Of a stretch of DNA of 54,609 nt, positions 1 through 45,281 are shown piece by piece. The stretch is from the NCBI GenBank assembly GCA_020722945.1, contig DYJV01000007.1, positions 1-54,609 on the forward strand. The letters run 5' to 3'. A program made the position numbers and the translations under genes. The DNA comes from Candidatus Methylomirabilis sp. (GTDB taxonomy: Bacteria; DYJV01). How positions within the stretch are numbered: position 1 is the first letter of the stretch; each line of letters begins with the position of its first letter. Below the pieces are notes generated by a model. The model did not search any database. It saw only the letters and a list, made by a program, of their open reading frames with translations, and was not told the origin of the DNA.

Positions 1-382
1 TGCAATAAATAATACAAGTGGCTCAAGGGTCATCGAATGTGTTTCAGATTTTATGCTTACTTTTGATTACGATAGTGATGGTGATGGCTTGGTTGAAGAT
101 TCTGAAAAAGATATAAATATCCCCTCTTCAGATAATGCTTCTTTGATAAAAAAAAGGGTAAAAGCTGTTAATTTCTACCTTCTCTTTCACGAAGGGAAAG
201 TTGATCCAAATTATACATTTTCAGGTGATATAGATGGAAACTATCTAATATTTAAAGATTTAGATAGTGATGGGAGTTGTGACACAGATGATGTATGTCT
301 TAATTTACCAACAAATTATATTAATTATAGATGGAAAAAATTATATCTAAAGGTGACACCTCGTGGGAGTATAAGTGAATAA
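1..382 (+). CDS. 3' end of a gene truncated by the window start. Acidic secreted or pilus-associated protein with a DxDxDG-like motif; function unknown.
   Basis: Frame 2 is open from nt 2 to the stop at 380-382. The ORF track begins only at the first Met, nt 53. The product contains a DYDSDGDGLVED calcium-site-like motif. The gene ends 8 nt inside the next gene, which is pilin-like. Confidence 0.35.
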   Translation, partial: AINNTSGSRVIECVSDFMLTFDYDSDGDGLVEDSEKDINIPSSDNASLIKKRVKAVNFYLLFHEGKVDPNYTFSGDIDGNYLIFKDLDSDGSCDTDDVCLNLPTNYINYRWKKLYLKVTPRGSISE

Positions 383-818
383 AGATGGCTTTGTTTTACC
401 TACAACTCTTATTTTATCTCTTGTTTCAGTTGGTCTGGTAATGGCCCTATGTTATTTATCGAATTCTGGTTCTTATATCTCATACTCATCCAAAAAATAT
501 ACATCATCATTAGAAGCTGCAAGGGGAGCAGCTGAGTTTGTGATGAAGCAGGCTGAGTGGGACGAAGGTGGAGATATTTTGCAGTGTAGTGGTGGGAGCT
601 GCAATCAAGGAGAGTATGTTGATTTGGGTGATTATTCATCTATTGGTAATAGTAATGTAACTGTTGAGATGCTTTCAGATCCACTTGAGAAAAAGATGTC
701 TTGTGAAGGTGGAGCAGATTGTTTTTTTATGATATACTCATTTAGAATTACGGCTGTTGATAAGGATGATAGCAGTAAAAGGGCAGTTATTGAAGTTGTT
801 TATGAGCTTGAGCAGTAA
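375..818 (+). CDS. PilX-like type IV pilus minor pilin or pseudopilin
   Basis: GTG start. The N-terminus MNKDGFVLPTTLILSLVSVGLVMAL resembles the PilX N-terminal prepilin-type hydrophobic segment. It has the small size and Cys-containing C-terminal globular part typical of minor pilins. Confidence 0.45.
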   Translation: MNKDGFVLPTTLILSLVSVGLVMALCYLSNSGSYISYSSKKYTSSLEAARGAAEFVMKQAEWDEGGDILQCSGGSCNQGEYVDLGDYSSIGNSNVTVEMLSDPLEKKMSCEGGADCFFMIYSFRITAVDKDDSSKRAVIEVVYELEQ

Positions 819-862
819 AAGATTTAATATATTTTTTTTAGGGTTAAAGGTAGGATGTTTTT

Positions 863-1261
863 ATGTTAAAAAAATTTTCAATTTCTACAAGTAGTAGAAT
901 TCAGCTAATTGATATTACAGAAAAAATAGAGGGCTTTATAATAAAATCAAGGGTAAAAGATGGAGTTGCTCTTGTTTATACCCCGCATACAACTTCTGCA
1001 ATCACTATAAATGAAAATGCTGATCCATCTGTCCAATACGATATAAACAATTTTTTGAGTAAACTTATTCCTCATCTTGGTGGTTATACACATTTGGAGG
1101 GTAATTCTGATAGTCATATAAAATCAACTCTTTTTGGTGCATCTGAGCATCTGATAATTTCTGCTGGCAGGCTGCTACTTGGCACATGGCAAGGTGTATA
1201 TTTCTGTGAATTTGATGGTCCAAGAAGTAGAAATTTTTATGTAAAAGTTATTGAAGGTTAA
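863..1261 (+). CDS. yjbQ: YjbQ/UPF0047 family secondary thiamine-phosphate synthase-like protein
   Basis: 132 aa, the family-typical length, with an overall sequence pattern that I recognise as YjbQ. Confidence 0.75.
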   Translation: MLKKFSISTSSRIQLIDITEKIEGFIIKSRVKDGVALVYTPHTTSAITINENADPSVQYDINNFLSKLIPHLGGYTHLEGNSDSHIKSTLFGASEHLIISAGRLLLGTWQGVYFCEFDGPRSRNFYVKVIEG

Positions 1262-1448
1262 AAATATAGTAACTAATTAAGCTGGGTAACTGTTTTATCT
1301 CCTCTCATTTATTTACACATCTATTTTGATTCCATTAATTTATCAATAGCCCTAAAGTAATTTAACTTTCAAAGTTGTAAGTTTATTACTACTCATTTTA
1401 CCTCATTTGTTCCCAAAAATAGTGTCTATAATCTTGATGTATATTAAA

Positions 1449-1472
1449 ATTGTCGAACTTTTCGACAATTTT
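1449..1472. promoter_or_regulatory. Perfect 10-bp inverted repeat AATTGTCGAA-cttt-TTCGACAATT, followed by a partial third half-site TTGTCGAgg. Candidate operator or activator site; alternatively a weak terminator for yjbQ.
   Basis: Read directly from the sequence. It lies about 60-80 bp upstream of the putative -35 of the small-protein operon. Confidence 0.4.
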
Positions 1473-1528
1473 GTCGAGGCTTAATGTCTAAAAATTAATA
1501 ATTACAGATACTTATAGTTGGCATAGCT

Positions 1529-1557
1529 ATTGATATTACAATGTCAGCAGGTATTAA
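1529..1557 (+). promoter_or_regulatory. Sigma70-like promoter: TTGATA, 17 bp spacer, TATTAA
   Basis: Hexamers and spacing read from the sequence. The predicted transcription start falls just before the RBS aaaaggaga of the first small gene. Confidence 0.3.
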
Positions 1558-1583
1558 AATAAAAGTAAAAAGGAGAATTTAAA

Positions 1584-1838
1584 ATGAAGGGTAAAAAAAT
1601 TGTAGTATCAGTATTAGTAGCAGGAATGTTGGTATCAGTGCCACTATTTGCAAAGGGTAAAGGGTATGCAGGTGGTCAGAATAGTGGGATTACACAGCCG
1701 TCAGGACAACAATTGATGCAGGGCAATGGTGATGGAACACAGCCGAGACCTATGGATGGAACAGGTTTTGGAGCGGCAAATGGTGGTGGAAATGGGTTAG
1801 GTTTGCAAGATGGTAGTTGTTTGATTAATGAATTATAA
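1584..1838 (+). CDS. Small secreted Gly/Asn/Gln-rich protein, paralog A (84 aa)
   Basis: Strong RBS aaaaggagaattt-aaa-ATG. Sec-type signal peptide MKGKKIVVSVLVAGMLVSVPLFA. Low-complexity mature region with a single Cys near the C-terminus. Confidence 0.6.
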   Translation: MKGKKIVVSVLVAGMLVSVPLFAKGKGYAGGQNSGITQPSGQQLMQGNGDGTQPRPMDGTGFGAANGGGNGLGLQDGSCLINEL

Positions 1839-1865
1839 AAATAAAAGTAAAAAGGAGAATTTAAA

Positions 1866-2126
1866 ATGAAGGGTAAAAAAATTGTAGTATCAGTATTAGT
1901 AGCAGGAATGTTGGTATCAGTGCCACTATTTGCAAAGGGTAAAGGGTATGCAGGTGGTCAGAATAGTGGGATTACACAGCCGTCAGGACAACAATTGATG
2001 CAGGGCAATGGTGATGGAACACAGCCGAGACCTATGGATGGAACAGGTTTTGGAGCAGCAAATGGTGGTGGGAAGAGATTAGGTTCGCAAAATGGTAGTT
2101 GTCCTCTAACAACTGTAACACAATAA
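1866..2126 (+). CDS. Small secreted Gly/Asn/Gln-rich protein, paralog B (86 aa). Its C-terminal tail has diverged from paralog A.
   Basis: Residues 1-69 are identical to paralog A. The tail is KRLGSQNGSCPLTTVTQ, against NGLGLQDGSCLINEL in paralog A. Confidence 0.6.
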   Translation: MKGKKIVVSVLVAGMLVSVPLFAKGKGYAGGQNSGITQPSGQQLMQGNGDGTQPRPMDGTGFGAANGGGKRLGSQNGSCPLTTVTQ

Positions 2127-2145
2127 TAAAAGGAGGTATTTGAAA

Positions 2146-2580
2146 ATGTCTACTCAACAAAGATTAATTAGTTCCATTTTTATCTTAACATTTTTAATGA
2201 CAGGGTCACTTTTTGCAAAAGGTTTAATGTTTAACCAGCATGAGATTCTTAAAGATTCTAAGCAGGTTGAGTATCAGGGGAATGTAGTTGCGGTTCCCAC
2301 TCCGTATAGTCAGGAGCAGGGGTTAGGGCTCACTCTTTCAACAGAGCAAGGTGGGATTGTTTTTTACGGTTTGGGGCCTATATGGTATTGGGAGAGTAAG
2401 CAGTTAACAAGACCTAAAGTTGGTGATAATATAAAAATTACTGCTTATGAAGTTGAAATTAATGGGAAAATGTATTATGTAGCTAAAAGTTTGATATTGG
2501 CAAATGGTGATTCTTTAGAATTGAGGGATGAAAATGCTTACCCAGTATGGGTTGGAGGTAAAAGTAAAAAATTTAAATAA
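2146..2580 (+). CDS. Secreted hypothetical protein (about 144 aa)
   Basis: RBS aaggagg lies 10 nt upstream of the ATG at 2146; the ORF track starts at an upstream TTG, nt 2140. The signal peptide ends ...SLFAKG, the same signal-peptidase region as the two small paralogs. No family recognised. Confidence 0.5.
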   Translation: MSTQQRLISSIFILTFLMTGSLFAKGLMFNQHEILKDSKQVEYQGNVVAVPTPYSQEQGLGLTLSTEQGGIVFYGLGPIWYWESKQLTRPKVGDNIKITAYEVEINGKMYYVAKSLILANGDSLELRDENAYPVWVGGKSKKFK

Positions 2581-2647
2581 AATTTATACTGGCTCTCTCC
2601 TATTTTAGGATTGAGAGCCAGTAATTTCCATTTTTAAGGGGGTTATT

Positions 2648-3226
2648 TTGAAATTTAGAAGATTTACATCTTTTTTTCTTTTTTTTACCTTTATTGTTAT
2701 GTGTTTTTCAGGGATAGTTCTTTATATTATGCCTCCTGGGAAGATTGCATATTGGATTGATTGGAGATTTATCAATCTGAATAAGACTCACTGGAATGCT
2801 TTGCACACAATTTTTAGCTATATTTTTGTTATTATCTCCTTTTTCCATATAGTTTTTAATTGGAACCCTATCCGTCAATACCTCATTAAAAATAGAAAAG
2901 AACTTTTCTCAAGCATTGCTTTGTCAATTATTATTGCTGCATTTACTATATTGAATGTTTCACCTTTTAAGCAGGTTATGGATTTTAGAGAGTATATCCA
3001 CACTTCATGGGAAAATAAAAAAATTGCACCATCTATTCCACATGGGGAGCTCCTACCACTTGTAAAGCTCTGTAAAATGATAAATGTTGATGTAAAAATA
3101 GCAGCAGAGAGACTAAAAAGTAACGGCATTATATTTTCCGATATGGAAGAGAGAGTTGTTGATATTGCCAAAGTAAATAAAGTCAAACCTGTAAAAATTT
3201 ATTACATCATAAAAAATGGAAAATGA
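2648..3226 (+). CDS. DUF4405-like integral membrane protein, putative heme-b-binding
   Basis: TTG start with RBS aagggggt. Three TM helices. His residues cluster in and near TM2 (THWNALHTIFSYIFVIISFFHIVFNW), as in DUF4405 proteins. A C-terminal soluble extension follows. Confidence 0.5.
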   Translation: MKFRRFTSFFLFFTFIVMCFSGIVLYIMPPGKIAYWIDWRFINLNKTHWNALHTIFSYIFVIISFFHIVFNWNPIRQYLIKNRKELFSSIALSIIIAAFTILNVSPFKQVMDFREYIHTSWENKKIAPSIPHGELLPLVKLCKMINVDVKIAAERLKSNGIIFSDMEERVVDIAKVNKVKPVKIYYIIKNGK

Positions 3227-3603
3227 GAATTTATTTTCTTGCTCTTATCTTAATTATATTTCTCCTTTCTGAGTTAGCTGGAAGAGATTTTATAAAAGCA
3301 AAAATTTTAGAATTTGATGGAGAGAGTAGATACAAACTTATAGATATATTTGATCAAAAAACTTACGATTTGATTTTAGATAAAGGGAGCACCCTAAATC
3401 TTCAAAATGAAAGCATAATTTTTATTAATTCAGATGGCTTGGAGGGTAAAAGTATTATAAGAGAGAGTGATATTATTGATGTTAAAAGTATTAAGGGGTG
3501 CAAAATCCGTGAAAGGATGAAACATATTGATAAAAAGAGAGCCTTTTTTAAAGGGGGTAATCTACTTAATCATGGTGGTTCTGGCACTCACCATAGCAAG
3601 TAG
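3223..3603 (+). CDS. Secreted hypothetical protein with a His-rich C-terminus (126 aa)
   Basis: N-terminal signal peptide MRIYFLALILIIFLLSELAG. C-terminal HGGSGTHHSK. Its 3' end overlaps the next gene by 77 nt. Confidence 0.4.
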   Translation: MRIYFLALILIIFLLSELAGRDFIKAKILEFDGESRYKLIDIFDQKTYDLILDKGSTLNLQNESIIFINSDGLEGKSIIRESDIIDVKSIKGCKIRERMKHIDKKRAFFKGGNLLNHGGSGTHHSK

Positions 3604-4438
3604 ATTGTTTTCTGAAAATTTGTTTGATATTAGAACAGGGTGGGGATATTCAGATAATATTTTGAGAAATAGTGACAGTTTAGGCAGTGGGTTTATCAAT
3701 TTAAATTTTTCAGATTATTTTATATTTGACAATAGTTCTTTTGCACTTATTACAGATAACAACATCAAAGTATTTACAGAAGAATCTTGGAGTAGTAATA
3801 GTAATTTACTTTTTGAGATTGATTATAACTTTGAAAATTCTTTTATTGGATTGGGAGTAAATAAGCTAATTGATAATAATGATAGGCAGAACAGTTTTTA
3901 TTCACTTTTTCTTATTTCTCAATATTCGTATAAAATTTTTGATATATCGTATATTTTATCATTTAAAAATTTTTCTGAAGAGTATGAATATGGCTCATTT
4001 AAAAATTCTATTTCCAAAAATAGACAACCTTTAAAAAAAAGGAGTAAAGAAGTCAATTTTATTGATGTTAATCAAGAGGATTTTAACCATATTCTATCTT
4101 TAGAAGTAAATCTTGATAATGTCAAATTTACACCTTTGATTGAATACAATAAAAGTAATGTTTCACGAGAAACTTACTTCTTGTATGGTCTCTCTTCATC
4201 TTATTCAAAACAGATAGATAGAGTGTTAGTTGACTTTTTGTTGTCTTATAATTCTTACAATTATACCAAAATTGACAGGGATGACAATCTGTTTAAAGTT
4301 GCTATATCTGCTGAGTATATGCTTGGGAAATTACTATCATTGACACTTTCTGATACTTTTGAAAAAAATATATCAGATTTTGATGGTGAGGATTACAACG
4401 CAAATACAATTATGCTCAACATAGGATTGGTTTACTAA
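3527..4438 (+). CDS. Putative outer-membrane beta-barrel protein (303 aa)
   Basis: TTG start with RBS aaagga. The signal peptide is MIKREPFLKGVIYLIMVVLALTIASRLFS. The protein has alternating amphipathic beta-like segments rich in Y/N/S and a C-terminal aromatic residue, ...GLVY. Confidence 0.5.
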   Translation: MIKREPFLKGVIYLIMVVLALTIASRLFSENLFDIRTGWGYSDNILRNSDSLGSGFINLNFSDYFIFDNSSFALITDNNIKVFTEESWSSNSNLLFEIDYNFENSFIGLGVNKLIDNNDRQNSFYSLFLISQYSYKIFDISYILSFKNFSEEYEYGSFKNSISKNRQPLKKRSKEVNFIDVNQEDFNHILSLEVNLDNVKFTPLIEYNKSNVSRETYFLYGLSSSYSKQIDRVLVDFLLSYNSYNYTKIDRDDNLFKVAISAEYMLGKLLSLTLSDTFEKNISDFDGEDYNANTIMLNIGLVY

Positions 4439-5941
4439 GTGTCTCGTAGAAGATTGCTAATATATAATCTCCTATTTCTCTTCATACTTATTTCTATTAT
4501 TATTTTTCATTATCAGAGGCACTATTCTGACCTAAAAAGAAAAATTGTGGTTTTAATTACTAAACAGGCTGAATCTGTTGCCAGAAGGGTAGAAGTTGCT
4601 GCAAACATTGCTTTTGAGTCAACCCAGTTTGTAAATAAAATAATCAGAGACAACCTCATCTCACATGCCAAATTTTTAGACCTTCTCAATTCGATAGAAC
4701 CTTTTACATCTCAGGAACTTGACGAATACACACTTGAGACAAATATCAACCTTATAGCTATCAGAAGTATAGATAAAAAAATTGTATCTTCTAATATGGG
4801 CAAGTTTAAACAAGAGGATATTGAAGCTCTTTTTAATAATTTTGATAGAGCTACTGTTAAGTTTCAAGAAATGGATCAATCGTATCTTCTTTTTTACTCT
4901 GGTCAATACTCTTCTGGTAGTGATATTATCATTGGTTTTGATGGGAGAGAGTATACTCAAAACATTAAAAAGATATCTGTAGAAACTCTCCTTGAAAATA
5001 TAAAGAAAAGGGGTGCAGTAATCGATGCGGTTTTAAAAAATGGAGTGGCAGATGGCGGGGTGAGATTAGTAGAAGATAAATTTTTCGAGGTAAAGGTTCC
5101 TGTAATGGGTGATTCACAGAGGTTTTTGGAGTTACGTATAGATGCTAAAAATGCTTTAAGGATCATAGATAATTTTAGGCATAACCTTATAGTTTTTATC
5201 TCAGTTATTCTATCAAGTGGTCTTTTTGGGATTATTCTAATTTATATACTTCAGAATTTCTATTTATCTAAAATAAAAGTTTATGAAAAGAAACTTTTTG
5301 ATAATGAAAAGGATGCTGCACTTGGAAGGAGTGCTGCTATGGTTGCACATGAGATAAGGAATCCTATAAATGCTGTAAGCATGGGTATTCAGAGGATAAA
5401 GTATGAAACTGACATCTCCAAAATTGATGAGTATAGTCAGCTTATCGAGACTATTGATAATGAACTTAAAAAAATCAATAGTGTTGTGAATAATTTTCTT
5501 GATTTTACAAAACCTGTAAAAGCAGATAAAAAAGATATAAAGATTAGAGAGTTGATTGATAACATTCTCCTTCCATATAGAAATAGCTTATCTGTCGATG
5601 TATCAGTTTTAATTTCTGAAGAGTTAATTATCCCTTGTGATAAAATTCTTGTTGAACATATATTTGGTAATCTTATAAAAAATGTATTTGAGAATGAAAA
5701 GGCAACCTATTTAAAAATTTATTATGAAAAAAATTTTAATCAGAAATTGATTATATTTGAAAATGATGGTATTGAAAAAGATGCTGCTACTGATAATTTT
5801 TTTGAACCTTACTTTACCACTAAGAGTAAGGGAGCAGGTTTGGGACTTGCTATTGTCAAAAAATTTGTAGATGCCCATAATTGGGAGATAAGTATAGATA
5901 ATAGTAGAAAAAACATTATCAAATTTATGATTTCTATTTAA
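4439..5941 (+). CDS. Sensor histidine kinase with a ~220-aa periplasmic sensor domain. No response regulator is adjacent.
   Basis: GTG start. Two TM segments, at roughly aa 8-24 and aa 246-268. H-box AMVAHEIRNPINAV. G2 box KSKGAGLGLAIVKKF. Confidence 0.8.
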   Translation: MSRRRLLIYNLLFLFILISIIIFHYQRHYSDLKRKIVVLITKQAESVARRVEVAANIAFESTQFVNKIIRDNLISHAKFLDLLNSIEPFTSQELDEYTLETNINLIAIRSIDKKIVSSNMGKFKQEDIEALFNNFDRATVKFQEMDQSYLLFYSGQYSSGSDIIIGFDGREYTQNIKKISVETLLENIKKRGAVIDAVLKNGVADGGVRLVEDKFFEVKVPVMGDSQRFLELRIDAKNALRIIDNFRHNLIVFISVILSSGLFGIILIYILQNFYLSKIKVYEKKLFDNEKDAALGRSAAMVAHEIRNPINAVSMGIQRIKYETDISKIDEYSQLIETIDNELKKINSVVNNFLDFTKPVKADKKDIKIRELIDNILLPYRNSLSVDVSVLISEELIIPCDKILVEHIFGNLIKNVFENEKATYLKIYYEKNFNQKLIIFENDGIEKDAATDNFFEPYFTTKSKGAGLGLAIVKKFVDAHNWEISIDNSRKNIIKFMISI

Positions 5942-5958
5942 AGATTGGGAGGCTTTTA

Positions 5959-7251
5959 ATGATACAAAGGTATTCAAGGGAAGTTATGAGAAAAATATGG
6001 AGTGAAGAGAACAAATTTAGAAAATGGCTCGATATTGAAATAGCTGCATGTGAAGCTTGGAGTAATATAGGCGTTATCCCTTCTAAATCTTTAGAGATTA
6101 TCATAAATAAAGCAAATTTTAATATTGATAGGATAAATCAGATAGAATCTGAAGTAAAGCACGATGTTATAGCTTTTCTTACATCTGTAGCTGAATTTGT
6201 GGGAGATGATTCAAGATTCATTCATAAAGGGCTTACTTCTTCAGATGTTCTTGATACTGCGTATAATCTTCTACTAAAAGAAGCTGGTATGATATTACTT
6301 GATGATCTAAAAAACCTTGCAGAAGTTTTGAAAGATAAGGCAGTAAAATACAAAATGACTCCTATGATAGGTCGATCTCATGGGGTCCATGCAGAGCCGA
6401 TTACATTTGGTTTGAAGATGCTGCTTTGGTATGATGAAACTTTAAGAAATATTGAAAGATTAAAAAAAGCTATTGAATCTATAAGTATTGGCAAAATATC
6501 TGGAGCAGTGGGGACATTTGCCAATATCCCACCTGAGGTAGAGGAGTATGTTTGCAAAAAGCTTTCTGTTAAGCCTGCACCTGTATCTACCCAGATAGTG
6601 CAGAGGGATAGACATGCAGAGTATTTCACTACTTTGGCTGTTATTGCATCATCTTTTGAAAAATTTTCTATAGAGATAAGACATCTTCAAAGAACAGAAG
6701 TTCTTGAAGCTGAAGAGTTTTTCTCAAAAGGTCAAAAAGGGTCATCTGCAATGCCCCACAAAAGAAACCCTGTTCTTTCAGAAAATGTTACAGGTCTTGC
6801 AAGATTAGTAAGAAGCTACTCAATTGCTGCAATGGAAAATGTTGCATTGTGGCACGAAAGGGATATAAGCCACTCCTCTGTTGAAAGAGTTATTGGTCCT
6901 GATGCGACTACCAATCTTGATTTTCTTATATGTAGATTTACTAACATCATAAAGAATCTTGTAGTTTATCAAGATAATATGCTTAAAAATATAAATCAGA
7001 CAAAAGGGCTTATCTTCTCTCAAAGGGTAATGTTGTTACTTACTGAAAAAGGTGTAAGTAGAGAGGAAGCTTATAGGATTGTTCAGCGAAATGCTATGAA
7101 AGTCTGGGAGGAGCATTTAGATTTTAAGAGTTTACTCCAAAATGATTCTGAGATAACTAAATTTTTATCTATGGATGAGCTTGATGAATTATTTGACCTA
7201 AATTATCACACAAAAAATATAGAGTATATTTTCAAAAGAGTTCTTGGGTGA
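5959..7251 (+). CDS. purB: Adenylosuccinate lyase
   Basis: 430 aa. MIQRYSREVMRKIWSEENKF... and the fumarate-lyase signature GSSAMPHKRNP. Confidence 0.9.
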   Translation: MIQRYSREVMRKIWSEENKFRKWLDIEIAACEAWSNIGVIPSKSLEIIINKANFNIDRINQIESEVKHDVIAFLTSVAEFVGDDSRFIHKGLTSSDVLDTAYNLLLKEAGMILLDDLKNLAEVLKDKAVKYKMTPMIGRSHGVHAEPITFGLKMLLWYDETLRNIERLKKAIESISIGKISGAVGTFANIPPEVEEYVCKKLSVKPAPVSTQIVQRDRHAEYFTTLAVIASSFEKFSIEIRHLQRTEVLEAEEFFSKGQKGSSAMPHKRNPVLSENVTGLARLVRSYSIAAMENVALWHERDISHSSVERVIGPDATTNLDFLICRFTNIIKNLVVYQDNMLKNINQTKGLIFSQRVMLLLTEKGVSREEAYRIVQRNAMKVWEEHLDFKSLLQNDSEITKFLSMDELDELFDLNYHTKNIEYIFKRVLG

Positions 7252-7364
7252 TTTGAATTTTGAAATTTTTATGTAATACAAATAAGACTTTTAGATTTAT
7301 TTTAGAGTTAGAGATTGTAATAGATTTTCTAATGCCACATCTCTCTCATTACAAAAATTTCTCA

Positions 7365-8153
7365 TTATTTGATATCGATGATTAGATTTTTTATTCCTTT
7401 TTCGTAGACTTCATTTACTGTGATTGTAAATTTGCTGTTTTCGATGGTTTCTTTCTTTTCAGGAATTTTGCCGAGCTCTTTTATGATATAACCACCAATT
7501 GTGTCGTAAGGACCCTCTTCAAAATCTATGTCAAGCTCTTCACTGATATCTTCAATAGGGCATTTGGCATCAATGAGATATTGTTTTTCATCCAATTTTT
7601 TGATTAATGATTCCTCTATTTCTTGAAATTCATCCACAAAATCACCAATTATCTCCTCCATAATATCACCAAGTGTCACCAAACCACAAACACCACCAAA
7701 TTCATCAACTACAACTGCTGTATGAACCTTTTTCTCTTTGAACTCTTTAAGAAGGAGTAGTATTTTTTTGGTTTCGGGAACGAAATAAGCGGGGCGGAGA
7801 TATTTTTTTAAGGAGAATTGAGTATCTTGCAAATTTGATAAAAGTAGATCTTTTGAGTATATAAAACCTACAATATTGTCGATATTTTCCTCATATACAG
7901 GGATTCTTGAGTGCTTGCATTCGTGAAAGATAGCAAGAACCTGATTTAAATCTGAATCTAAGCTTAATGCTACCATTTCGGTTCTTGGAACCATTATCTC
8001 TCTTACAATAGTATCAGAGATATCAATTACATTTTTGATTATCTCTTCAGACTCTGTATTGATAATACCTTTTTGGACAAGGAGAGTTATAAGTTCTTCA
8101 AATTTATCTTTGTCTTCAAGATTATTCATTAATTCTAATATGTTACTCTTCAT
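7365..8153 (-). CDS. CBS-pair plus CorC/HlyC C-terminal domain protein (CNNM/CorC family, soluble form)
   Basis: 262 aa. Tandem CBS-like segments followed by a transporter-associated C-terminal domain. No DUF21 TM region. Confidence 0.7.
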   Translation of the reverse strand: MKSNILELMNNLEDKDKFEELITLLVQKGIINTESEEIIKNVIDISDTIVREIMVPRTEMVALSLDSDLNQVLAIFHECKHSRIPVYEENIDNIVGFIYSKDLLLSNLQDTQFSLKKYLRPAYFVPETKKILLLLKEFKEKKVHTAVVVDEFGGVCGLVTLGDIMEEIIGDFVDEFQEIEESLIKKLDEKQYLIDAKCPIEDISEELDIDFEEGPYDTIGGYIIKELGKIPEKKETIENSKFTITVNEVYEKGIKNLIIDIK

Positions 8154-12402: not shown

Positions 12403-13365
12403 ATGAAAAAAGAACAAAAACTTTCAAACATCATAATTTATCAAGCACCAAATGGAGCCATTGAACTAAAAGGTGATTTTGATAAAGAAACAATTTGGGC
12501 AAATCAAAGTCAAATTGTAGATCTTTTTGGAGTAGATCAATCTGTTATCTCAAGACATATCAAAAATATTTTCAAAGATGGTGAAGTAGACCAAAAAAGC
12601 AATATGCAAAAAATGCATATTCCAAATTCTGATAAACCTGTTGTTTTTTATTCTTTGGATGTGATTTTGTCTGTCGGATATAGGACAAATTCTAAAGTTG
12701 CAATTGATTTTAGAAAATGGGCGACAAATATTCTAAAAGATCATTTAATACAAGGCTACACTATCAACAAAAAAATACTTGCCAAAAACTATACACTCTT
12801 TCAACAAGCACTTTCTGATATACAAAAGATTTCTCAAAATAAACTTTTTTCAAATGATATTTTGGAATTGGTAAAAACTTTTAGTTATACTTGGTTTTCG
12901 CTTGATGCTTTTGATAAGGAAAGATTGCAAACTAAAAAAATAACAAAAAAATCTATAAAACTTGATGCTAAAAAACTTTATGAAGATTTAGAAATATTAA
13001 AAAAGGAACTTATAGCAAAAAATGAAGCAACTGGCCTTTTTGCACAAGAAAAACAAAAAGGAAGTTTAGAAGGTATTTTAGGAAATGTTTTTCAGTCAGC
13101 TTTTGGACAAGATGTTTATCCAAGTATAGAATCAAAAGCAGCACATTTACTATATTTTATCGTCAAAAATCATCCCTTTAATGATGGCAACAAAAGAAGT
13201 GGTGCTTTTGCTTTTATCTGGTTTTTGCAAAAAGCAAAATATGGTTTTATAGATAAAATCACACCTCAAGCATTAACAGCAATTACCTTGCTTATTGCAA
13301 TAAGTGATCCAAAGGACAAGCAAAGAATGATTGATTTGGTAATTTTACTTTTAACTGGAAAATAG
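12403..13365 (+). CDS. RhuM-family N-terminal domain fused to a Doc-type Fic domain (Fic/DOC family protein)
   Basis: The N-terminal ~200 aa match the RhuM pattern (...IWANQSQIVDLFGVDQSVISRHIKNIF...VILSVGYRTNSKVAIDFRKWAT...). The C-terminus carries HPFNDGNKRSG, which is the Doc-type HxFx(D/N)GNKR variant of the Fic motif. Confidence 0.8.
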   Translation: MKKEQKLSNIIIYQAPNGAIELKGDFDKETIWANQSQIVDLFGVDQSVISRHIKNIFKDGEVDQKSNMQKMHIPNSDKPVVFYSLDVILSVGYRTNSKVAIDFRKWATNILKDHLIQGYTINKKILAKNYTLFQQALSDIQKISQNKLFSNDILELVKTFSYTWFSLDAFDKERLQTKKITKKSIKLDAKKLYEDLEILKKELIAKNEATGLFAQEKQKGSLEGILGNVFQSAFGQDVYPSIESKAAHLLYFIVKNHPFNDGNKRSGAFAFIWFLQKAKYGFIDKITPQALTAITLLIAISDPKDKQRMIDLVILLLTGK

Positions 13366-32910: not shown

Positions 32911-34077
32911 CTATGTAGAGATAGAAGGTAAATTAATTTGTGCTTCAGTTATTGTAAAATTTTTACTTTTTATCCAGTCTTTTAAAATAGTTGCTATCTC
33001 TTTTGCCTTTTTGTAGCTTGATAAAGGTGATGTAGGGACTTTCCTTCCATTAAACTCTACACTCCCTGTTTTTAGCTCTGCGTATGTAAATTCTGCAAGC
33101 AGATTATCAATTTTGTTTGGATAATCATTTCCATAATCGTATAAACCTGCATAGATTTCTTCATCTGATACAGATGTATAAAGGGCAATCTCCTCATTTA
33201 AAATCGGGATTGGTATCCCAATACCAACTGAAAGGCTACAACCGTAGCCAAGTATACTTACTCCCTTTATCCATTTGGAGCTCATACTTTTCATATCCCC
33301 TGTTACTGCAATTGTCCCTGCTCCACCCTTGACCACACCATTTGCTGATCTTGGGACATCTGGATTATGTTGAGTCCCTTGCCAAGCAATTACACCTGTC
33401 CCCCCTCCGAGAAATATTTTTGTGCCTATCCCTATGGTTTTGTAAAATGGATCATTCAGGAGTGGTGAAAGTTGTCCTGCACTACAGTAATTAATATTCC
33501 CAGCTTTTGGTTTGAGGACACCCATATATGTATAAATTGTTTTGTTTGATAGATTTACAGCAACATTGTAATTCTGATAACAATTTCTTGGATTGTATAA
33601 AAAAGCATTTCTAAATTTATCTATGGTCAATATTGTTTCATAGTATCTTCTTGGATAACAATCTGTCCCATAACTCTCTGCAACAAGGTGAACTTCTTTG
33701 CCATCTATCAGCTCTTCAATAACATGCCCGCCACCATATTTAAATTCACCCGGGTAATTATTGTTTGCAGGGTCATTTCTTGATATTTGAGTTGCTCCTA
33801 TAAAAAAATCAACAGCAGCAATTCCACCATAGCATAATACATCATTTAGCCAAACAGTGCTTGCCTTTATTTTAGGTTTGGTATGACCAAAGTTTAAAAA
33901 AGCACCTGAAGAGCACATAGGAGCAAATGTCCCTGTAGTTACCACATCTACTTGTGAGGCGGCTTCAACAGCACCATTCTCTCTTACTATCTTTATCATC
34001 TCCTCTGCGTCTACAACAAAAGCTTCACCTCTTTTTATCTTTTCATTTATCTGTTGGACAGTTTTATTCACTTTCAC
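32911..34077 (-). CDS. DUF39 (COG1900) homocysteine-biosynthesis / sulfur-incorporation family protein
   Basis: 388 aa. A conserved Gly/Cys-rich pattern typical of DUF39 runs throughout. Confidence 0.65.
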   Translation of the reverse strand: MKVNKTVQQINEKIKRGEAFVVDAEEMIKIVRENGAVEAASQVDVVTTGTFAPMCSSGAFLNFGHTKPKIKASTVWLNDVLCYGGIAAVDFFIGATQISRNDPANNNYPGEFKYGGGHVIEELIDGKEVHLVAESYGTDCYPRRYYETILTIDKFRNAFLYNPRNCYQNYNVAVNLSNKTIYTYMGVLKPKAGNINYCSAGQLSPLLNDPFYKTIGIGTKIFLGGGTGVIAWQGTQHNPDVPRSANGVVKGGAGTIAVTGDMKSMSSKWIKGVSILGYGCSLSVGIGIPIPILNEEIALYTSVSDEEIYAGLYDYGNDYPNKIDNLLAEFTYAELKTGSVEFNGRKVPTSPLSSYKKAKEIATILKDWIKSKNFTITEAQINLPSIST

Positions 34078-44053: not shown

Positions 44054-45028
44054 TTGCTTGATAAACTTAAAAATCAAATTATTTCAGCTCCACTTGCAGG
44101 TTTAACCAACGAGCCTTTGAGACTACTTTTCAAAGATATTGGTTTAAAGATTACATATACTGAGATGGTGAGTGCTGATGCATTAATAAGAAGAGAGAAG
44201 AAAACTTTGGGCATGGTTACACTTAAATATGAGAGGCCTATTGTTATTCCGCAGATATTTGGCTCTGATCCTGATATTTTGTCTGATGCTGCAAAAATTT
44301 TACATCAAATGGGTTACACTTTTGTTGATATTAATATGGGTTGTCCTGTGAGAAAAGTGAATAATAGAGGTTCAGGTGTAAAACTTATGGATAATCCTGA
44401 TACAGTTAGAAAGATTATCCATAAGCTAAGAGAGATTCCTGTTGTAATATCTGTTAAGCTGAGACTTGGGGTTAAGGAGAGCACTCTTAATTATCTTGAT
44501 ATAATAAATATTCTTTACAATGAAGGAGTTGATTTTGTAACGCTTCATCCAAGGAGTGGTGAAGAATTTTTTAAAAATAGTGCAAGATGGAGCTGTATAA
44601 AAGAGGTTAAAGATAAATTTCCAAAACTCTTTCTTATTGGAAATGGTGATATAAAATCACCTGAAGATATTGAACAGATGTTTTTACAAACAGGTTGTGA
44701 TGCTGTAATGATTGGGAGGAAATTGTCTGAAGACCCTCTACTTATTCAACAATGGGAAAAATTCAAGGAAGATGGAAGTTATCAATTGAGCACACCAGAA
44801 AAAAAGATGGAGATATTTAAAACACTGTTTAATTACATTAATCTATTTTATAATCAGAAAATTTCCACTACTTTAGCCAGAAAATACCTATTTCTATTCT
44901 CAAAAGGATTTAGCTGTAGTGCTGATTTTAGAAAAAAAATATCATTAATAAAAAATTGTATTGAAATTTTAGAAGAAATAAGTTATTGGGAAAAAAATTA
45001 TAAAACAGATAGAGATATGTATGGATAA
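44054..45028 (+). CDS. dusB: tRNA-dihydrouridine synthase (DusB-like)
   Basis: TTG start. 324 aa. APLAGLTNEPLRLL...INMGCPVRKV is the Dus signature, and a fis-like gene follows. Confidence 0.8.
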   Translation: MLDKLKNQIISAPLAGLTNEPLRLLFKDIGLKITYTEMVSADALIRREKKTLGMVTLKYERPIVIPQIFGSDPDILSDAAKILHQMGYTFVDINMGCPVRKVNNRGSGVKLMDNPDTVRKIIHKLREIPVVISVKLRLGVKESTLNYLDIINILYNEGVDFVTLHPRSGEEFFKNSARWSCIKEVKDKFPKLFLIGNGDIKSPEDIEQMFLQTGCDAVMIGRKLSEDPLLIQQWEKFKEDGSYQLSTPEKKMEIFKTLFNYINLFYNQKISTTLARKYLFLFSKGFSCSADFRKKISLIKNCIEILEEISYWEKNYKTDRDMYG

Positions 45029-45281
45029 AAATATTAAAGATTTAGATAAGTTTTCTTTAGAAGAGATTCTTGAATATAAATTTGATTGCTTATTAGAGCA
45101 TGTAAACCCATCCAAGAGCAACAATCATAATTTTTATAATATTGTTTTAGAGAGTATAGAAAAATCTCTTTTTAAGAAAGTTATCTCAAAAACTGGTAAT
45201 AACCAATCAAAAGCATCAGAGATGTTAGGCATCAATAGAAACACTCTCAAAAAGAAGCTTTTGAAGTATAATCTAATATAA
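45021..45281 (+). CDS. fis: Fis-family DNA-binding protein
   Basis: 86 aa. The C-terminal HTH GNNQSKASEMLGINRNTLKKKLLKYNL matches Fis. The dusB-fis order is conserved. Confidence 0.7.
   Translation: MDKNIKDLDKFSLEEILEYKFDCLLEHVNPSKSNNHNFYNIVLESIEKSLFKKVISKTGNNQSKASEMLGINRNTLKKKLLKYNLI

Follow-up and report, generated by a model that had tools for sequence, protein, structure and literature searches.

The contig DYJV01000007.1 of Candidatus Methylomirabilis sp. (54,609 nt, the whole stretch of DNA analysed here, referred to as the window) carries seven consecutive genes for envelope proteins, G1 to G7, and raises the question of what their products do together. A preliminary description drawn from the sequence had proposed either a trans-envelope electron-transfer unit or a unit for sensing by ligand relay. 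Comparison with other genomes indicates that the cluster is a real, conserved and uncharacterised envelope module. Our best single guess at its role, and not a strong one, is a two-component, sigma-54-dependent periplasmic stress module, most likely for metal-ion or metal-linked redox stress. We hold this tentatively, at somewhat less than even likelihood, with a general envelope stress response as the main rival. The cluster is known here from sequence comparison, and we infer its function.

Conservation and layout of the cluster

In two further uncultured lineages, represented by the loci L006 and L011, five of the seven gene types occur in unchanged order (L014 stems from the same organism as L006, L005 from the lineage of the window). 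The conserved order is Gly-rich peptide, MamS/MamX-type OB-fold protein, secreted protein of ~127 aa, outer-membrane barrel and kinase. The full order in L006 and L011 consists of a divergent NtrC-type regulator, a Gly-zipper lipoprotein, one Gly-rich peptide, the MamS/MamX protein, a secreted protein of ~127-129 aa, the barrel and the kinase. The Gly-zipper lipoprotein that precedes the cluster in these relatives was not found in the window, and a DUF4405 gene such as G4 is absent from both related clusters. Because the flanking genes differ among the three lineages, the conserved order does not reflect general synteny. G1 is the best conserved protein of the cluster (68% identity to its ortholog in L011, 60% in L006); the values are 38-47% for G3, ~20% for G5, 26-27% for G6 and 42-44% for G7.

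A metagenome scan with the sensor domain of the kinase returned only the L006 organism again, and no publication describing the cluster was found in a literature search. None of the secreted proteins was assigned to a housekeeping family in Pfam or NCBIfam; G1, G2, and G5 with its orthologs have no family match there. The set had not been recognised as a described system, and this view stands: the genes form an envelope module whose order recurs, for five of the seven genes, across three lineages.

The ORF (open reading frame) list confirms seven co-directional genes on the plus strand (Table 1). From G1 to G7 the junctions measure +27, +19, +67, -4, -77 and 0 nt, in agreement with the short or overlapping junctions described earlier. 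G4 and G5 are translationally coupled by the 4-nt overlap. A single uniform seven-gene transcript is doubtful because a strong hairpin lies in the G3-G4 junction, so that the gene layout of the proposed co-directional set holds and its uniform transcription does not follow. The G+C content around the cluster is low (~27-38%). A hydropathy scan found one N-terminal hydrophobic segment each in G1, G2, G3, G5 and G6 (long start). The resemblance of the signal-peptidase region between the paralogs G1 and G2 (...PLFAKG) and G3 (...SLFAKG), noticed at the outset, is real. For G3 the spacing to the Shine-Dalgarno sequence prefers the ATG at 2146 to the TTG at 2140, and alignment with homologs favours the longer TTG start of G4 and GTG start of G7. 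Public gene calls trim G4 to 175 or 165 aa, which cuts into the first transmembrane (TM) segment, and G7 to 464 aa.

Table 1. Positions of the genes and sequence elements of the cluster in the window.
Feature	Position	Strand	Description
Three 8-bp half-sites, candidate upstream activating sequence (UAS)	1450-1478	.	repeat conserved in L006 and L011
Sigma-54-like -24/-12 element TGGCATAGCTATTGA	1519-1533	+	51 nt 5' of the G1 ATG
282-bp tandem duplication	1557-2120	+	G1 and G2 with their ribosome-binding sites; 262/282 identical
G1	1584-1838	+	84 aa, secreted Gly-rich peptide; motifs GDGTQPRPMDGTGFG and QDGSC
G2	1866-2126	+	86 aa, paralog of G1; C-terminal end differs (QNGSCPLTTVTQ)
G3	2146-2580	+	144 aa from ATG; secreted; MamS/MamX (PF26390) domain, predicted OB fold
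Hairpin and U-rich stretch	2587-2623	+	from folding
G4	2648-3226	+	192 aa, TTG start; 3-TM half-size DUF4405 protein
G5	3223-3603	+	126 aa, secreted; beta-rich N-terminal part, IRER motif, basic His-containing tail
G6	3527-4438	+	303 aa from TTG, or 288 aa from ATG 3572; BBP2_2 beta-barrel
G7	4439-5941	+	500 aa; sensor histidine kinase

G5 keeps its position in L006 and L011, and its IRER motif is invariant. The tail had been described as His-rich; His residues are present (3 in the last 11 residues), and the tail is only modestly His-rich and mainly basic. We also considered a flavinylation site in G5 and rejected it. The motif reads S/T-G-A-S/T, with which ...GGSGT... does not agree, and no ApbE gene was found among the ORFs scanned (the scan covered the window outside 34.9-45.0 kb). 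The assignment of G6 as an outer-membrane beta-barrel is borne out by a Pfam match of its last 70 residues to BBP2_2 (E 7e-8, 32.2 bits, cut-off 23.7), by a signal-like segment if the protein is read from the TTG start and by a C-terminal aromatic residue (...GLVY; ...GINF in the orthologs). The 3' end of G5 and the start of G6 overlap by ~77-80 nt in all three lineages (window 3527-3603, L006 4893-4972, L011 6829-6908). Read in two different frames, this stretch encodes both the basic C-terminal tail of G5 and the signal peptide of G6, and it is kept despite the low identity of G5.

The Gly-rich peptides and the MamS/MamX domain

G3 links the cluster to the MamS/MamX domain. The precomputed record for the identical protein holds a significant match to PF26390, and NCBIfam gives a weak match of the C-terminal part to MamX (E 0.0025); PF26390 was not among the matches of G3 in a separate Pfam scan at E<=1. 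Word-index searches found relatives of G3 and G4 to be nearly absent (self and two matches each), and a full HMMER search (phmmer) was needed for G3. In this search 552 representatives, i.e. clusters at 50% identity, match G3 at E<=1e-3, many of them annotated as PF26390. A scan of the genome collection with a narrow family alignment gave 5 loci. Family members often contain the domain in two or three copies. MamS and MamX act in the iron biomineralisation and magnetite maturation of magnetosomes (PMC3905215).

The fold of G3 is predicted to be an OB-fold beta-barrel, as is predicted for the MamS and MamX C-terminal domains. G3 lacks a membrane anchor; we take its N-terminal hydrophobic segment to be a cleavable signal peptide. 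The protein contains neither a magnetochrome CxxCH motif nor any Cys. The CxxCH motif is likewise missing from each of the 150 best G3 matches examined. A sequence search of solved structures found no relative of the G3 family, and none of the G1 family.

The fusions found in this family bear on the role of G1 and G2. In 59 of 169 members a Gly-rich segment lies between signal peptide and OB domain, often as GNGxGxGDGTGPIH, and a Gly-rich C-terminal tail occurs in 20 of the 169. Several of these fused tails end with G[DST]C[PL], as do G1 (...GLQDGSCLINEL) and G2 (...SQNGSCPLTTVTQ). Examples that resemble the ends of G1 and G2 are ...LRDGSCLTP (in a protein of locus L016), ...GDGTGNGPKDGSGNGSRTGDCPLT and ...GGGDGSCS; the tail of G2 in particular resembles fused tails such as ...TGDCPLT and ...DGSCLTP. 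G1 and G2 have one Cys each and share GDGTQPRPMDGTGFG, which is conserved in L006 and L011. From these similarities G1 and G2 read as free-standing copies of an accessory segment which, in other loci, is part of the OB-domain protein itself. Such fusions are a classical sign that two proteins bind each other or work together, which would make G1/G2 and G3 a pair. An aromatic docking surface for the proline-containing motif could plausibly be formed by the invariant OB-domain residues (YGLGPxWYW, LRD, PLW).

The two peptide genes lie in a tandem repeat with units at 1557-1838 and 1839-2120. The units differ at 20 positions, of which 19 fall within the final 49 bp and only one within the 233 bp before them. 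Both variants occur in an independent metagenome of the Joint Genome Institute (JGI), and the relatives L006 and L011 have one copy of the gene. The repeat seems to break other assemblies of the same organism (L001, L005): the contigs from NCBI (GCA_975418705.1) and from JGI each start within G2 or immediately ahead of it, and the 84-aa variant stands on a separate 3.2-kb JGI contig. In L006 the G1 ortholog (3658-3941) is split by a one-base frameshift beside a G run (atgggcggggtaac), which may stem from an error of assembly or from a genuinely slippery run; read through the frameshift it comprises 94 aa. A precursor of a ribosomally synthesised and post-translationally modified peptide (RiPP) was considered for G1/G2 and rejected. 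Both have Sec signal peptides, and the only match was a weak, low-complexity one between a different protein and a Gly-repeat RiPP model.

Related arrangements exist beyond the three lineages. Two loci of the Thermodesulfobacteriota type, one of them titled as such (L010), combine a kinase, a sigma-54 regulator, a Gly/Gln-rich secreted peptide and two MamS/MamX genes beside rpoN (L009, L010). The partner peptide of L009 is rich in Gly, His, Met and Cys, and that of L010 contains DGTQPRP and is extremely rich in Gln, Asn and Tyr. In L016 a kinase and a sigma-54 regulator precede the MamS/MamX gene, which has a canonical TGGCAC-N5-CTGC promoter. In L015 two heavy-metal P-type ATPase genes, one of them of the copper type, flank the MamS/MamX gene, with a CsoR/RicR-type repressor gene alongside. 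The L013 partner protein is helical, and its tail is Gly-rich and Cys-ending. The closest homologs of G3 end in Met/His/Cys-rich tails, e.g. HGRMMMQNGNNGHMMHDDC...

Two further details of these loci may be added. The rpoN gene of L010 (8862-10136, minus strand; ARRTVAKYR box) directly adjoins the unit of kinase, regulator, Gly-rich peptide and MamS/MamX genes. Two genes 3' of the MamS/MamX gene of L016, a 156-aa secreted or lipoprotein-like protein (6349-6819) consists nearly entirely of GPGDGTGNG-type repeats with a GDCG end, and a cytochrome c peroxidase gene comes next.

Kinase, regulator and upstream elements

G7 had been described as a sensor histidine kinase with a large periplasmic domain, and both parts of this assignment agree with our results. 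Pfam identifies HisKA and HATPase_c, and two TM segments bracket residues ~25-249, a periplasmic domain of ~225 aa. The transmitter half is closest to AtoS/ZraS. With the ZraS model G7 scores 94.8 bits (cut-off 479), and only model positions 174-441 align. Three His residues at the boundary of membrane and periplasm (His24, His28, His248) are invariant in the three lineages.

The earlier remark that no cognate response regulator lies nearby is correct for the window, where receiver domains occur only in a CheV and in a PhoB-type regulator encoded next to phoU-pst. Moreover the window ORFs contain no sigma-54 activator, no GAFTGA motif and no RpoN box. As a trait of the module, however, the lack of a regulator does not hold. 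L006 and L011 encode a divergent protein with REC, Sigma54_activat and HTH_8 domains (NtrC family), and the window keeps the repeat and the promoter-like element described below; the missing gene is a local rearrangement. The regulators of L006 and L011 score best on the AtoC, NtrC and ZraR models, always below the equivalog cut-offs (ZraR: 345-424 bits, cut-off 760; AtoC higher). An 86-aa Fis-like helix-turn-helix (HTH) protein is encoded at 45021-45281 of the window, adjacent to the gene of the PhoB-type regulator. In searches with the sigma-54 regulators it aligned with their HTH_8 end, but it is not such a regulator.

Upstream of the first gene all three lineages show a TTCGACAA-N2-TTGTCGA(A) repeat and a TGGCAY-N5-KTGW element. 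In the window the half-sites read TTGTCGAA-ctt-TTCGACAA-tt-TTGTCGAg. The perfect palindrome occurs once in the 54.6 kb, and two of the three TTCGACAA copies of the window lie within the half-site region. The intergenic regions of L006 and L011 contain TTCGACAA-N2-TTGTCGAA, followed after ~60 nt by TGGCAY-N5-KTGW. In a three-way alignment the columns of the repeat and of TGGCATAGCTATTGA are invariant. We regard the half-sites as a candidate enhancer for an NtrC-family activator and the TGGCATAGCTATTGA element as sigma-54-like. Control of this type gains independent support from L009, L010 and L016, where a kinase and a sigma-54 regulator accompany MamS/MamX genes.

The hairpin behind G3 has a folding energy of -27 kcal/mol (z -5.8), and none of 200 shuffled sequences folds as well. 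A hairpin also directly follows the MamS/MamX gene in L006 and L011. It is thus a candidate for an internal attenuator, a terminator or a stabiliser after the G1-G3 unit; a simple terminator scan of 800-7400 called nothing, this hairpin included. Rfam searches of the whole window and a sensitive scan of 1200-2700 found no RNA family. Hence a riboswitch leader is not indicated.

Possible functions of the cluster

In the metal-stress module that we tentatively favour, G7 would sense a periplasmic signal, with its three invariant His residues at the membrane surface as candidate ligands, and would phosphorylate an activator encoded elsewhere in this genome. The activator would drive strong expression of G1/G2 and G3, and read-through would lead to lower expression of G4-G7. 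G1/G2 and G3 would act as one periplasmic binding or buffering unit, which G5 and the barrel G6 may connect to the outer membrane. G4, as a FezC-like b-type cytochrome, may pass electrons across the inner membrane and thereby alter the redox state of the bound species; its role would parallel the MamX-MamZ pairing of magnetosomes. The case for metal is not strong. It draws on the tails of the G3 homologs, the ATPase locus L015, the partner proteins in L009 and L013, the His residues of G7, the ZraS/ZraR class of the regulatory pair, the role of MamS and MamX and the connection of DUF4405 and FezC with iron handling.

Several observations weigh against this module. G1, G2 and G3 of the window are themselves poor in His, Met and Cys, the invariant OB-domain residues (Gly, Pro, Trp, Arg) are not typical metal ligands, and just 5 of the 169 members of the family have a Met/His/Cys-rich tail. 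The full five-gene core is found in only three related lineages of low G+C content. Five of the twelve interpretable MamS/MamX contexts (L007, L012, L017, L018, L021) contain neither a regulatory nor a metal gene. The sensor half of G7 matches no known family or solved structure; only the transmitter does. TGGCAY-N5-KTGW has one match in the 54.6 kb, with ~0.8 expected by chance, so that its evidence lies in the position and not in the count. Its -12 part is non-canonical (TGA/TGT instead of TGC), and we therefore grade the element as sigma-54-like only, not proven. Finally, neither rpoN nor the response regulator of this genome turned up in the window, to which the search was directed.

A general envelope or protein-folding stress response with no involvement of metal is the main rival, and we consider it rather unlikely. 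Here G3 would act like YgiW/YdeI or Spy/CpxP/ZraP, G1/G2 would be flexible partners, and G7 would sense envelope damage. The low content of metal ligands in G1-G3 fits this explanation, and so does the earlier modelling of MamS on YgiW (PMC3905215) and the role of ZraP as a chaperone that responds to envelope stress (PMC4987338). However, no sequence relation to Spy/CpxP/ZraP (LTXXQ) or to BOF families was found in Pfam or NCBIfam, a member of the family lies in a heavy-metal ATPase/CsoR locus, and the closest homologs of G3 carry Met/His/Cys-rich tails. The lineage-specific recruitment of a cytochrome b also points to redox chemistry.

An improbable alternative is that G1-G3 and G5 are mainly accessory sensors rather than effectors, and that they hand a bound ligand to the periplasmic domain of G7 or feed back on this domain. 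Kinase and secreted proteins are co-conserved in one cluster, and the large sensor domain of G7 matches no known type. ZraP and CpxP act on their own kinases. The explanation is moreover compatible with the metal-stress module, as ZraP is both effector and repressor; reportedly this dual role is named in the title of a 2012 paper by Appia-Ayme et al. The hairpin after G3 and the duplication of G1 suggest products of high abundance, though, which would be unusual for pure co-sensors, and MamS/MamX proteins also occur without any kinase. Of the two options of the preliminary description, this sensing by ligand relay ranks nearer the mark than electron transfer.

To judge the latter, G4 has to be looked at closely. 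The description of a DUF4405-like protein with three TM helices and three His residues around the second agrees with the Pfam match to DUF4405 (PF14358; E 1.8e-17, 64 bits, cut-off 26.7, over the full 66-position profile) and with the TM segments seen in the hydropathy scan. These are followed by a small C-terminal helical domain, common only to G4 and its two close homologs. The His residues are His48, His53 and His67. Their conservation was checked on three sequences, G4 and the only two homologs found: His53 and His67, 14 residues apart on the second TM segment, are invariant, and His48 is not. An AlphaFold2 monomer model built from these 3 sequences was poor (predicted local distance difference test, pLDDT, 61; predicted template modelling score, pTM, 0.35).

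Heme b binding has been shown experimentally for a DUF4405 protein and for FezC of the ferrosome (PMC11334425). Full-size DUF4405 proteins have six TM helices and four central His residues, and FezC is modelled as making equivalent heme sites by homodimerisation (PMC11334425). These cytochromes are linked to iron handling, and the family is proposed to move electrons across the membrane (PMC11334425). With its family match, three TM segments and two conserved His residues 14 positions apart on one helix, G4 fits a FezC-like, half-size putative heme-b cytochrome, and by this analogy the heme idea is reasonable for G4 itself. It differs from FezC by the C-terminal helical domain. Neither the cluster nor the scanned ORFs contain other fez genes, ApbE or a flavinylated partner.

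As a part of the module, the heme component does not survive the comparison. It is absent from both related clusters, and its nearest named homolog, in a Bacteroidales genome, stands alone. From the gene orders, G4 is a lineage-specific insertion between the MamS/MamX gene and G5. Because it lies outside the conserved core, it cannot define the function of the module.

A trans-envelope electron-transfer unit, with electrons passing from quinol via the cytochrome b G4 to periplasmic carriers and out via the barrel G6, is therefore highly unlikely as the basic function. The activity proposed for the G4 family (PMC11334425), the translational coupling of G4 and G5 and the presence of an outer-membrane barrel would suit it. 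Apart from the absence of G4 in clusters that keep all other gene types, however, none of the seven proteins shows CxxCH or another recognisable redox-cofactor motif, no flavin-, Fe-S- or copper-centre family was matched in Pfam or NCBIfam, no ApbE-type gene is present among the scanned ORFs, and the barrel is small (~270 mature residues) with no cytochrome partner encoded. For lack of CxxCH the cluster also differs from the multiheme conduits of the Mtr/Pio type.

Equally hard to credit is an export system like curli or Fap, with G1/G2 as major and minor subunits, G3 and G5 as chaperones and G6 as channel. Tandem paralogous small secreted proteins rich in Gly, Gln and Asn, an attenuator-like hairpin after abundant products, a dedicated barrel and the composition of the L010 partner peptide would be expected of such a system. 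But in many family members the Gly-rich segment and the periplasmic OB domain form one chain, the pair of Gly-rich and MamS/MamX proteins occurs without a barrel in L009, L010 and L016, G1 has no internal imperfect repeats, and Pfam and NCBIfam reveal no resemblance to proteins of the Csg or Fap systems.

Loci of the PEP-CTERM/exopolysaccharide type include BBP2_2 barrels and PrsK/PrsR-like regulators, and G6 matches BBP2_2 while the regulators of the relatives reach 373-413 bits on the PEP-CTERM-box regulator (PrsR) model; a regulatory and export locus of this kind is nonetheless extremely improbable, as these scores stay below the cut-off (502.6) and AtoC, NtrC and ZraR score equally or better, G7 reaches 47 bits on PrsK (cut-off 300), G1-G5 have no PEP-CTERM tail (motif and TM segment), and the cluster encodes no exosortase or glycosyltransferase. 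A defence system was considered as well and rejected, since PADLOC models gave no match.

Among known systems, the metal-stress module that we favour would resemble ZraPSR in its logic, with elements that recall Pco/Cus, but with different proteins. Common to both are a membrane kinase whose transmitter is closest to ZraS/AtoS, candidate sigma-54-type promoter elements and, in the relatives, an NtrC-family sigma-54 activator gene divergent from that of a small periplasmic effector. The tail of ZraP is Gly-rich and contains Cys, like the effector-associated segment here. The model system ZraPSR answers to zinc and envelope stress (PMC4987338). In contrast, Pfam and NCBIfam find no LTXXQ/Metal_resist (ZraP-family) protein among the cluster proteins. 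The putative effector combines an OB-fold MamS/MamX protein with peptides from genes of their own, the sensor domain bears no relation to the ZraS one, and G5, the outer-membrane barrel and the cytochrome b are extra parts. With neither a ZraS sensor domain nor a ZraP-family protein, the cluster is, by sequence, not a ZraPSR system. To the Pco/Sil/Cus systems there is no sequence relationship; the Met/His/Trp site of CusF and the Met/His motifs of PcoE/SilE are absent, the latter from G1/G2. The regulator class in those systems is OmpR, here sigma-54/NtrC.

The most intriguing point is the pairing of G3 and G4, which recalls that of MamX and MamZ and is found in one lineage. For MamX, cooperation with the YedZ-like cytochrome domain of MamZ has been proposed (PMC3905215), and in the window the G3 domain stands beside a b-type cytochrome-like protein of the MsrQ/YedZ/DUF4405 structural class (PMC3905215, PMC11334425). 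Unlike the magnetosome proteins, G3 has neither CxxCH nor a membrane anchor, and G4 lacks a major facilitator superfamily (MFS) transporter domain. Pfam finds no other magnetosome gene in the cluster or among the scanned ORFs.

The surroundings of the cluster consist of the housekeeping genes of a diderm chromosome, such as nusA-infB, pnp, murJ, a heptosyltransferase gene and pst-phoU (Pfam, scanned ORFs). The co-directional neighbours are yjbQ upstream and, after a gap of 17 nt, purB downstream; neither is conserved with the cluster. At the start of the window (53-818) two small proteins are encoded, the second with a pilin-like N-terminus (MNKDGFVLPTTLILSLVSVGLV). Neither has a family match, and they probably represent the end of a pilus or pseudopilus operon. 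Between housekeeping genes lies a lone gene for a protein with RhuM and Fic domains (12403-13365), flanked by ~500 bp upstream and ~300 bp downstream without ORFs of at least 120 aa, which may be a small mobile or toxin-type insertion. An HcyBio-family enzyme of homocysteine biosynthesis (sulfur incorporation) is encoded at 32911-34077 on the minus strand (E 3e-152). Methanogens and other strict anaerobes are the best-known hosts of this pathway, which would fit an origin from an anaerobic bioreactor.

The MamS/MamX domain has so far been discussed only for the maturation of magnetite crystals, yet the family around G3 counts hundreds of representatives. The cluster and its relatives offer handles on the function of this domain. 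Its regulator class is defined (kinase and sigma-54 activator), a candidate for the operator can be named, a Gly-rich, Cys-ending partner, fused or separate, looks obligatory, and here and there heavy-metal export genes or a FezC-like cytochrome are linked to it. If the metal-stress module proved wrong, the genes would still be a compact, conserved and inducible envelope operon of uncultured anaerobes with no function assigned. There is a small chance that the cluster reveals an ancestral, non-magnetosome role of the MamS/MamX domain. We also consider it unlikely, though worth naming, that the cluster and its sub-module of Gly-rich protein, MamS/MamX protein, kinase and sigma-54 regulator are an undescribed periplasmic system of anaerobes for metal (possibly iron) redox buffering or mineral handling. 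Such a system would draw on the same stock of domains as the machinery of magnetosomes (MamX-MamZ) and ferrosomes (FezC), its conserved GDGTxPRP...DGSC peptides would represent a novel type of partner for the OB domain that binds metal or mineral, and it would give a first clue to what the MamS/MamX domain does in bacteria that are not magnetotactic. If the tentative metal or redox function is true, the cluster encodes a new periplasmic metal-stress effector, and MamS and MamX would have been recruited from the ordinary toolkit of envelope stress.

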